A stretch of DNA of 50,569 nucleotides, taken from Candidatus Iainarchaeum sp. (GTDB lineage: Archaea > Iainarchaeota > Iainarchaeia > Iainarchaeales > JAAZKV01). How positions within the stretch are numbered: the stretch's first letter is position 1; each line of letters starts with the position of its first letter. The stretch spans positions 107,519 to 158,087 of the forward strand of contig JAAZKV010000018.1 of the NCBI GenBank assembly GCA_012799645.1. The letters are read 5' to 3'. A model generated the notes under the pieces. That model worked only from the letters and a program-made list of their open reading frames with translations, did not search any database and was not told the origin of the DNA. Shown here in pieces: positions 24,843 to 24,942 of this stretch. The position numbers were made by a program, and so were the translations under genes.

Positions 24843-24942
24843 GTAATTACTTATAAACCTTACTGTAATGATGTGTATTTATTGTAATTACGCTTGTGAA
24901 TGCACGTAATTACTCATTATGAATGTAATTACTCGTAATTAC
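24843..24942. promoter_or_regulatory. Array of GTAATTAC palindromes (5 perfect, 1 degenerate)
   Basis: Copies at 24843, (24865 GTAATGAT), 24884, 24906, 24925, 24935. Confidence 0.85.

Follow-up and report, generated by a model that had tools for sequence, protein, structure and literature searches.

Proteins that govern their own genes from arrays of short, regularly spaced sites have been described in archaea and on plasmids. In Saccharolobus solfataricus, dimers of the archaeal regulator Ss-LrpB bind cooperatively to regularly spaced palindromes before their own gene and deform or wrap the DNA; the protein autoregulates and acts on a few neighboring targets too, according to the portions of PMC4046817 drawn on here. 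TubR is a repressor of its own operon, in front of which lies the array of short repeats that it binds, and its recognition helices form the dimer, with both N-termini in one major groove and the wings in the minor groove; in the ParR/parC system of plasmid R1 repeat blocks flank the promoter of the protein's own operon, which is repressed through cooperative binding (both as given in parts of PMC5016525). Here we examine an arrangement of this kind in Candidatus Iainarchaeum sp. (Iainarchaeota; Iainarchaeales). Within a stretch of 50,569 nucleotides (JAAZKV010000018.1, positions 107,519 to 158,087; hereafter, the window), an array of the 8-bp palindrome GTAATTAC covers the promoter of a gene for a 142-aa orphan winged-helix protein. 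The array is a real and strongly conserved cis-element, and its layout makes it probable, at about 70% by our estimate, that it is an autoregulatory operator bound cooperatively by that protein.

The array resembles the Ss-LrpB system in that a putative archaeal regulator, which would bind as cooperative dimers, has regularly spaced palindromes before its own gene. The differences lie in the protein and in the layout: Ss-LrpB belongs to the Lrp/AsnC family and has three 15-bp boxes upstream of its promoter (PMC4046817, in part), whereas the present protein is an orphan winged helix and each box measures 8 bp, with 6 to 10 of them running in a 10-bp register through the B-recognition element (BRE), TATA box and start codon and, in some species, extra sites 3' of the gene. 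The predicted homodimer, with its axis on helix 3 (T97 against T97), would resemble that of TubR; the protein differs in being the product of a single-copy chromosomal core gene, in facing palindromes and not direct repeats, and in having a dimer that is a prediction. We rejected membership in the TubR/tubC type III partition systems because no TubZ motor gene is adjacent; a Pfam scan of the 12 neighboring open reading frames (ORFs; 17251-30160) found neither a tubulin/FtsZ gene nor any other partition NTPase. Repeats on either side of the putative binding protein's promoter are a feature shared with ParR/parC. ParR, however, is a ribbon-helix-helix protein that works with the ParM motor, neither of which is present here, and membership in this system was rejected because our model is a winged helix.

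Fur, PerR and Zur boxes are arrays of overlapping AT-rich 7-1-7 repeats of the ATAAT/GTAAT type, along which several dimers can align. Two elements of the present array have this 7-1-7 form (TCATTAC-N-GTAAKG and TCATTAT-A-TTAATGA), and the Fur family gives the best structural match to the predicted DNA-binding domain (Foldseek E 1.2e-3; VIA Z 9.4). Fur membership (PF01475) was nonetheless rejected, as there is no FUR match at E up to 0.01, no C-terminal metal-binding dimerization domain and no cysteine. At dnaA and oriC, the boxes of the initiator DnaA double as operators. The gene of a DNA-binding protein beside a cluster of its own sites, at a switch in strand asymmetry, is a layout that DnaA/oriC and WhiP-oriC3 (PMC3607249, in part) would share with the present locus; here, however, the protein is a small single winged helix and not AAA+ or Cdt1-like, an origin role is putative, and in the genus of the window the main switch in skew lies elsewhere. 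By the criteria applied, the 142-aa protein falls outside the PadR, Fur, Lrp, ParR and TubR families.

The palindrome array and its promoter

The window corresponds to C2:107519-158087 of genome G000, an assembly of 779,062 bp in 34 contigs with 30% GC. A word count finds five exact copies of GTAATTAC in it, starting at 24843, 24884, 24906, 24925 and 24935, and a 6/8 copy, GTAATGAT, lies at 24865-24872; the start-to-start distances across the six are 22, 19, 22, 19 and 10 bp. A first-pass annotation of the bare sequence had reported five perfect copies and one 6/8 copy within 100 bp at these spacings, and both the count and a reading of the sequence recover them. Dinucleotide shuffles of the window contain 0.91 copies on average and at most 4, with none of 100 shuffles reaching five. 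The whole genome holds 17 copies, and the 12 outside the array are all singletons, which leaves the array as the sole cluster. Against a Markov background, the count that the annotation had suggested, 11.5 to 32.1 copies are expected per genome (orders 0 to 5); the word is therefore clustered at the array without being enriched genome-wide. The Poisson probability of at least five copies in any 100-bp window of the genome is 3e-10, and 20 simulated order-3 Markov genomes never placed more than two in 100 bp. The related heptads GTAATKA/TMATTAC match 11 times within 94 bp at the array, and only one other cluster of at least three exists in the genome, with three matches. Tandem Repeats Finder reports only a weak 10-bp row (24905-24942; 65% matches, score 41); the spacers are therefore unrelated and a slippage repeat is excluded, as the annotation had also held.

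We give the positions of sites relative to a BRE anchor. Along the gene (minus) strand, four palindromes come first: the distal site at 24935..24942 (-78), 10 bp from its neighbor at 24925..24932 (-68), and the sites at 24906..24913 (-49) and 24884..24891 (-27). The degenerate copy follows at 24865..24872 (-8); it reads ATCATTAC on the gene strand and is fused to the BRE-like AGTAAGG (24864-24858), the two together giving TCATTAC-A-GTAAGG. With the TATA box TTTATAA (24857-24851), the latter forms the core promoter as read from the sequence (24851..24864, minus strand). The TATA box runs directly into the next GTAATTAC (24850-24843; +14), which agrees with the annotation's placing of the first copy against it. 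The series ends in an inverted repeat, CATCATTA-TAT-TAATGATG (24824..24842, minus strand), that carries the ATG ATG start of the gene in its right arm and is kept in the genus as (G/C)(G/A)TCATTATATTAATGA(C/T).

In archaea, the start of transcription can be placed from its distance to the TATA box. The ATG here lies ~25 bp from the TATA-box center, the usual archaeal spacing, so the predicted start falls within 24824..24842 and the mRNA should be leaderless. Two studies provide metatranscriptome contigs that span the gene without differences; both end at 24812/24813, which is 16-17 nt inside the ATG and hints weakly at where the transcript begins. This RNA evidence consists of contigs from four runs, none of which reaches 24820-25063, so it allows no inference about absence there.

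Distribution of the sites and of the gene

The winged-helix gene is a single-copy chromosomal core gene of one Iainarchaeota order. It is single-copy in 50 of 61 relatives, including all 15 high-quality genomes, and in a wider sample of the phylum it occurs in 151 of 201 genomes (55 of the 58 of high quality), with the listed matches all in the window's own order. None of 19 genomes (five families) from other Iainarchaeota orders has it, with the proviso that one listing labels these genomes 'same class' and another labels them other orders.

We compared 48 ortholog loci from at least 25 families, two of which stop at a contig edge without upstream DNA, leaving 46 usable. Within 220 bp upstream of the gene, at least one perfect GTAATTAC is present in all 46, at least two in 33, and at least three heptad matches in 44; motif density is 9.2 per kb upstream of orthologs versus 0.30 per kb elsewhere in the same loci. 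The first-pass annotation had named two findings that would undo its proposal, namely similar clusters throughout the genome and a motif not conserved upstream of orthologs; the 779-kb genome contains no second GTAATTAC cluster, and the motif stands at 46 of the 46 loci with upstream DNA, so that both checks speak for a real element.

A [CA]GTAA..TTTWTAA block is found in 38 of the 48 loci, and anchoring on BRE and TATA box worked for 38. Sites start at -47 in 15 of these, at -37 in 25, at -27 in 29, at -8 in 29 and at +14 in 30, and adjacent sites are 10 bp apart in 48 instances, 19 bp in 28 and 22 bp in 31. The helical phasing that the annotation had proposed for this genome is thus clearer in its relatives. 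A MAFFT alignment of 20 promoters from the genus shows conserved motif columns and variable spacers. As a control, we inspected the 130 bp upstream of EF-1alpha, where the motif occurs in this genome only and in 0 of 27 other orthologs; EF-1alpha was accordingly dropped as a regulon member, its single site lying 57 bp upstream. A separate feature of that gene is a conserved block of about 45 nt (AATGCGTTGYCTGGTGAACGGCTTAAAATCGC...) upstream of its ORF across the genus (L056-L070, L080, L083; about 21,775-21,824 of contig C33 in G000), which may be a structured leader or a small RNA.

Grouped sites keep close to the gene. The exact tandem GTAATTACNNGTAATTAC occurs at 15 places in 14 of the 61 relatives, 14 of the places being the promoter of the winged-helix gene, and its reversed control is found nowhere. 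Close GTAATTAC pairs (gap 1-14 bp) are present in 65 of 201 phylum genomes, versus 6 of 201 for a reversed-pattern control, and in none of the 19 genomes from orders without the gene. Among 75 listed pair places (52 further places are not included in this breakdown), upstream places within 700 bp of the gene account for 51 and places 2-2.7 kb upstream for 9, another 10 fall just past its 3' end, 3 are on other contigs, and 2 could not be placed. This makes for a near-exclusive link of site clusters to the gene, with 70 of the 75 listed pairs, or 70 of the 73 placeable ones, within about 3 kb.

The pairs at 2-2.7 kb include eight from the window's genus, which were checked (loci L054, L089 and L094-L099, in genomes G017, G018, G003, G007, G010, G008, G015 and G002). 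In all eight genomes the pair sits between tRNA-Lys(TTT) and tRNA-Lys(CTT), 5' of the latter, and in the three examined closely a TATA-like box directly precedes it. A TATA-abutting pair at the tRNA-Lys(CTT) promoter points to a promoter-blocking factor, and the arrangement suggests factor-level control of one tRNA isoacceptor in these relatives. In the window's genome, the corresponding tRNA-Lys spacer (26882-27060) has no site even with one mismatch, and none of its 24 tRNAs has heptads upstream.

Other site groupings were seen in passing. In family f32 (G130, G174, G181; L101, L102, L103), a separate locus on other contigs carries four GTAATTAC-type sites around a conserved GTTAACTTTCTTAA core and may be an extra target in that family. 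Three loci (L006, L008, L014; genomes G015, G014, G011) have a Nudix-like ORF between the winged-helix gene and its convergent neighbor, and then two or three GTAATTAC sites 18-22 bp apart. In the window itself, two one-mismatch copies (GTAATTAA) lie 12 bp apart at 36475-36494, between ORFs 35930-36454 (plus strand) and 36551-36973 (minus strand). The three other GTAATTAC copies of G051, within 51 kb of the gene, are all inside ORFs and were treated as chance occurrences; a site-free third of the G038 chromosome (321-598 kb) was set aside because the listed sites of G018 show no such gap.

The winged-helix protein and the proposed operator model

The gene of the 142-aa protein (24401..24829, minus strand) was characterized through its ORF, a Pfam scan, a homolog search and an AlphaFold model. 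In the model (predicted local distance difference test, pLDDT, 76), an amphipathic helix at the N-terminus (residues 3-12) is joined by a disordered linker to a winged helix (41-123), after which comes a C-terminal helix; the protein also has an acidic tail and an invariant wing, GGKRKWRKK. Its sole Pfam match is to PadR (PF03551), at 17.1 bits against a gathering cut-off of 27 (E 0.0054) and over residues 84-114 only, and PadR membership was rejected on this sub-threshold score. NCBIfam has no match for the protein or for three of its neighbors, the best E in a sequence-profile search of the PDB is 0.21, and the ESM Atlas returns only generic winged-helix or Fur-like entries. A word-indexed search yields 290 homologs; among the 120 listed, none has a Pfam domain, all are named 'hypothetical' or 'uncharacterised', and the organisms are given as Diapherotrites, ainarchaeum or plain 'archaeon'. 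From 1.84 billion representative proteins, a profile search yields no more than 39 clusters and no distant tail. In the literature on Iainarchaeota and Diapherotrites regulators, winged-helix proteins and GTAATTAC, supplements being outside the search, we found no account of the protein or the motif.

By fold, the model matches generic winged-helix DNA binders. The top Foldseek match is C. jejuni Fur (E 1.2e-3), with TubR (PDB 3m8e_A) at rank 37 (E 0.022), and VIA-align gives Z 9.4 both to RosR and to the DNA-binding domain of H. pylori Fur (2xig_A; root-mean-square deviation (rmsd) 2.7 over 77 aligned residues) and Z 8.8 to PadR 5dym_A (rmsd 1.9 over 67), the last being a score that many other winged-helix families tie. 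An alignment of 30 orthologs has 42 invariant positions, including N87 and R89 through T97 of helix 3 and, in the wing, G110 and R113-K117; there is no cysteine, and H57 is the only invariant histidine. A symmetric homodimer is predicted with a score of 0.55, against 0.01 for the best control. Of proteins solved as pairs, 20 of 30 attain this level, and of those solved as single chains, 1 of 23. Prediction runs share at least 44% of their contacts, and the pLDDT of the partner is at least 68. The predicted interface consists of helix 3 residues 93-94 and 96-103, with T97 against T97. Such a symmetric homodimer would fit palindromic sites, and a TubR-like dimer head could fit a compact 8-bp palindrome.

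Archaeal repressors act from sites placed over the BRE, TATA box or start, where they block transcription factor B (TFB) and the TATA-binding protein (TBP) or RNA polymerase. The array has this placement over its own gene, the -8 site being fused to the BRE, the +14 site touching the TATA box and the ATG lying within the inverted repeat, and it is conserved along with the gene (46 of 46 loci; close pairs in none of the 19 genomes from orders without it). We infer three things from these observations: that the winged-helix protein is the binder, that it binds cooperatively and that it represses. The binding unit would be the 8-bp palindrome GTAATTAC or its half-degenerate form (GTAATGA / TCATTAC), and units in a 10-bp register, or about two helical turns apart in this genome, would present themselves on one face of the DNA. 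Since the sites are in helical register, cooperative loading along that face would be possible, and dimers may fill it as protein concentration rises. Once bound, dimers would keep TFB/TBP and RNA polymerase off the promoter, so that the leaderless transcript of the protein's gene would be repressed, a negative autoregulation. The first-pass annotation had likened the array to iterons or centromere-like arrays that double as autoregulatory operators. The operator half of that comparison holds up, given sites at the BRE, TATA box and start and their presence at 46 of 46 orthologs; the iteron or centromere half we regard as doubtful, for reasons taken up below.

Several observations weigh against autoregulation. 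With the PadR score under its cut-off, no characterized DNA-binding family vouches for the protein. The predicted dimer would bury the C-terminal half of helix 3, the usual recognition helix, and the canonical winged-helix reading would therefore not apply. Sites also occur in the 3'-3' spacer between the gene and its convergent neighbor in 11 of 48 loci, where there is no promoter; no conserved target was found away from the gene's neighborhood; and the other 12 GTAATTAC copies in the genome are singletons, about half of them in coding sequence. A factor that mostly regulates itself is an odd thing to find encoded by a universal, extremely conserved core gene. Finally, the operator alone leaves unexplained a step in strand composition at the locus, to which we now turn.

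Competing explanations and neighboring genes

The alternative that survives best would add to the operator: the arrays might in addition mark an origin of replication, whether the only one or a secondary one, or a centromere-like site close to the origin, with the protein as a lineage-specific origin or centromere binder and autoregulating boxes. We consider this unlikely, if well short of negligible. The evidence comes from AT3, the AT skew at third codon positions on the plus strand, corrected for gene orientation, which replaced the raw GC and AT skews of the window and contig because these are confounded by gene orientation. AT3 was followed in four genomes (G000, on contig C2, and G018, G038 and G051). 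In the complete 840-kb genome G038, cumulative AT3 forms a clean V with its maximum at 764-770 kb, next to the gene at 770.1-770.7 kb, and its minimum near 348 kb, 417 kb from the maximum, or half the genome. In G051 the maximum lies at 979.5-980.1 kb and the gene at 981.0-981.4 kb; AT3 over 100 kb is +0.111 +-0.017 to the left of the locus and -0.129 +-0.016 to the right, whereas the two sides of cdc6 in that genome have +0.079 and +0.093. The G038 curve has no inflection at cdc6 (817 kb), and none of the four genomes has an origin-like step there.

At a finer scale, the top +-25-kb step among the 104 breakpoints of C2 falls at 131,845 (about 24,327 in the window), between the winged-helix gene and p198, its convergent neighbor, and none of the top five breakpoints is more than 2.1 kb from the gene. 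In G018, the step at the array ranks first of 362. In G051, with 309 breakpoints, ranks 6 and 9 go to one that lies 1.3 kb from the upstream end of the gene and to the one beside the array, respectively. G038 is less clear-cut: of its 704 breakpoints, the one at the array ranks only 47, and the nearest strong one, at rank 3, is 3.6 kb off. The step holds separately in plus-strand and minus-strand genes in all four genomes, in G038 for the plus strand only with a 50-kb window. AT3 thus has a local step at the locus in 4 of 4 genomes, which is a global switch in G038 and G051 and not in G000 or G018. Within the window's genus, AT3 taken over 100 kb is negative to the left and to the right of the locus alike, and the cumulative curve has its main maximum 117 kb from it in G000 and 177 kb from it in G018; we inspected the main maximum on C2 (about 12-18 kb) and found nothing origin-like. 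In G000, G018 and G051, AT3 is also near zero over a block of some 17-20 kb on the gene's 3' side.

As a rule, leading strands are T- and G-rich. If that rule holds here, the polarity of the step (at or above zero on the left, T over A on the right) is origin-like, and the orientation of genes in G038 indirectly agrees, which is the only check of the rule that we have. The sample is also small, with four genomes from three families, whose members are kin and not independent, and with crude ORF calls (at least 100 aa). We therefore treat the AT3 result as an unexplained observation that keeps the dual role, operator and origin (or centromere), alive as a minority view.

Beyond skew, an origin or centromere would account for the sites in promoter-less 3' spacers (11 of 48 loci), would suit the 316-bp T-rich tract without genes beside the array (24943..25258, between array and tRNA-Met gene; T-richness judged by eye), and would be in keeping with a predicted dimer of TubR type. 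There are precedents as well: Sulfolobus oriC3 depends on an initiator other than Orc1 (PMC3607249), and an essential origin motif is bound by a protein that is not an initiator (PMC12141716), each as described in part of the source. On the other side, the sole Cdc6_C match in the genome (C2:53164-53469) is 79 kb from the array, which speaks against an origin or iteron array; in four relatives the corresponding match lies 47 to 174 kb from the winged-helix gene. The 12 neighboring ORFs scanned with Pfam contain neither a partition NTPase nor an initiator gene, the winged-helix gene is a chromosomal core gene, and the sites are locked to BRE, TATA box and transcription start in a layout that is repeated at a tRNA promoter, for which a plain repressor suffices. 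A more specific version would make the arrays the cis-element of an origin or origin-proximal segregation site in Iainarchaeales and the 142-aa protein a lineage-specific, TubR-like filament former that binds them, membrane-tethered perhaps by its amphipathic helix, with its own promoter throttled through these boxes and with neither Orc1/Cdc6 nor a known partition motor adjacent; we hold this to be slightly less likely again.

A different possibility is that the sites are true operators bound by another factor, one that controls both the winged-helix gene and tRNA-Lys(CTT). The winged-helix protein is itself a putative binder, an 8-bp palindrome is short for a classical winged-helix dimer, and helix 3 is hidden in the predicted dimer. 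However, site clusters track the gene on both its sides in 70 of 73 placeable pairs and are missing from the 19 genomes of orders without it, the motif and the protein's helix 3 and wing are alike invariant across the order, and it is less economical to suppose a further factor dedicated to a single small gene; we regard this explanation as improbable. A structural DNA feature (curvature or histone positioning) or a chance cluster is very improbable, for although AT-rich sites phased at 10 bp would also favor bending, an exact 8-mer keeps fixed positions in at least 25 families while the spacers drift, and the chance expectation is 3e-10.

The gene's convergent neighbor, p198 (23657..24253, plus strand), is an orphan gene adjacent to the winged-helix gene in 40 of 48 loci. 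Its product (198 aa; 193 aa in databases) has no Pfam domain and 55 invariant positions in 22 sequences, and is modeled with confidence (pLDDT 87.5) as a ferredoxin-like N-domain and a helical C-domain. Fold searches yielded no informative match in the PDB, with Foldseek E values of at least 0.07 and VIA Z up to 7.7, to generic ferredoxin-like folds, and the ESM Atlas contains its own cluster only. It may be a functional partner of the winged-helix protein. The 3'-3' spacer between the two genes holds a TTTCTTGGACAY-based motif (24329-24354; AACTCAATTTCTTGGACACTATTTTG on the minus strand) that is kept in most ortholog loci, and a similar TTGTTGGACACTATTT lies at another convergent gene junction, near C2:11.63 kb; the motif looks like a general gene-boundary or terminator-type signal of the lineage. 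A XerC/D-type tyrosine recombinase gene (21632-22567, plus strand; Phage_integrase E 1.8e-46) lies 2.3 kb from the array. In G042 (L043) the recombinase gene is directly adjacent to the winged-helix gene; it is part of the conserved neighborhood and shows no mobile-element signs.

Upstream of the array, the 316-bp spacer contains a conserved CATCACTT motif on the minus strand (about 25016-25030). In its general form, (C)CTCACTT(T/G)A (CCATCACTTTGAA in this genome), this motif lies 150-190 bp upstream of most orthologs; it occurs two or three times in more distant loci, and in 3' spacers it is often found right after GTAATTAC. An 11-bp tandem, TGGTTCAATTG, at 25022-25046 adjoins a G9 run (25045-25053) in this 30% GC genome. 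The upstream neighbor is tRNA-Met (CAT; 25259..25335, minus strand), which is all that an Rfam scan of 24300-25500 detects at E up to 1.

DPANN archaea have either not been cultivated or are difficult to grow, and to our knowledge almost nothing has been established about how they regulate their genes or where their replication starts. The array provides a cis-element conserved throughout an order together with a candidate factor that can be produced recombinantly, and, if the proposed autoregulation is true, the two would be among the first defined regulator/operator pairs in DPANN. The prediction is simple to state: a leaderless promoter overlaid by 6 to 10 copies of an 8-bp palindrome in helical register. 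In relatives, the sites suggest that a regulatory factor controls one isoacceptor gene, tRNA-Lys(CTT). The step in strand asymmetry suggests that the origin of these genomes may lie away from cdc6, and if the more specific origin reading is true, the locus would follow in an archaeon the logic of dnaA boxes at oriC or of tubC, without an adjacent Orc1/Cdc6 or known partition motor.

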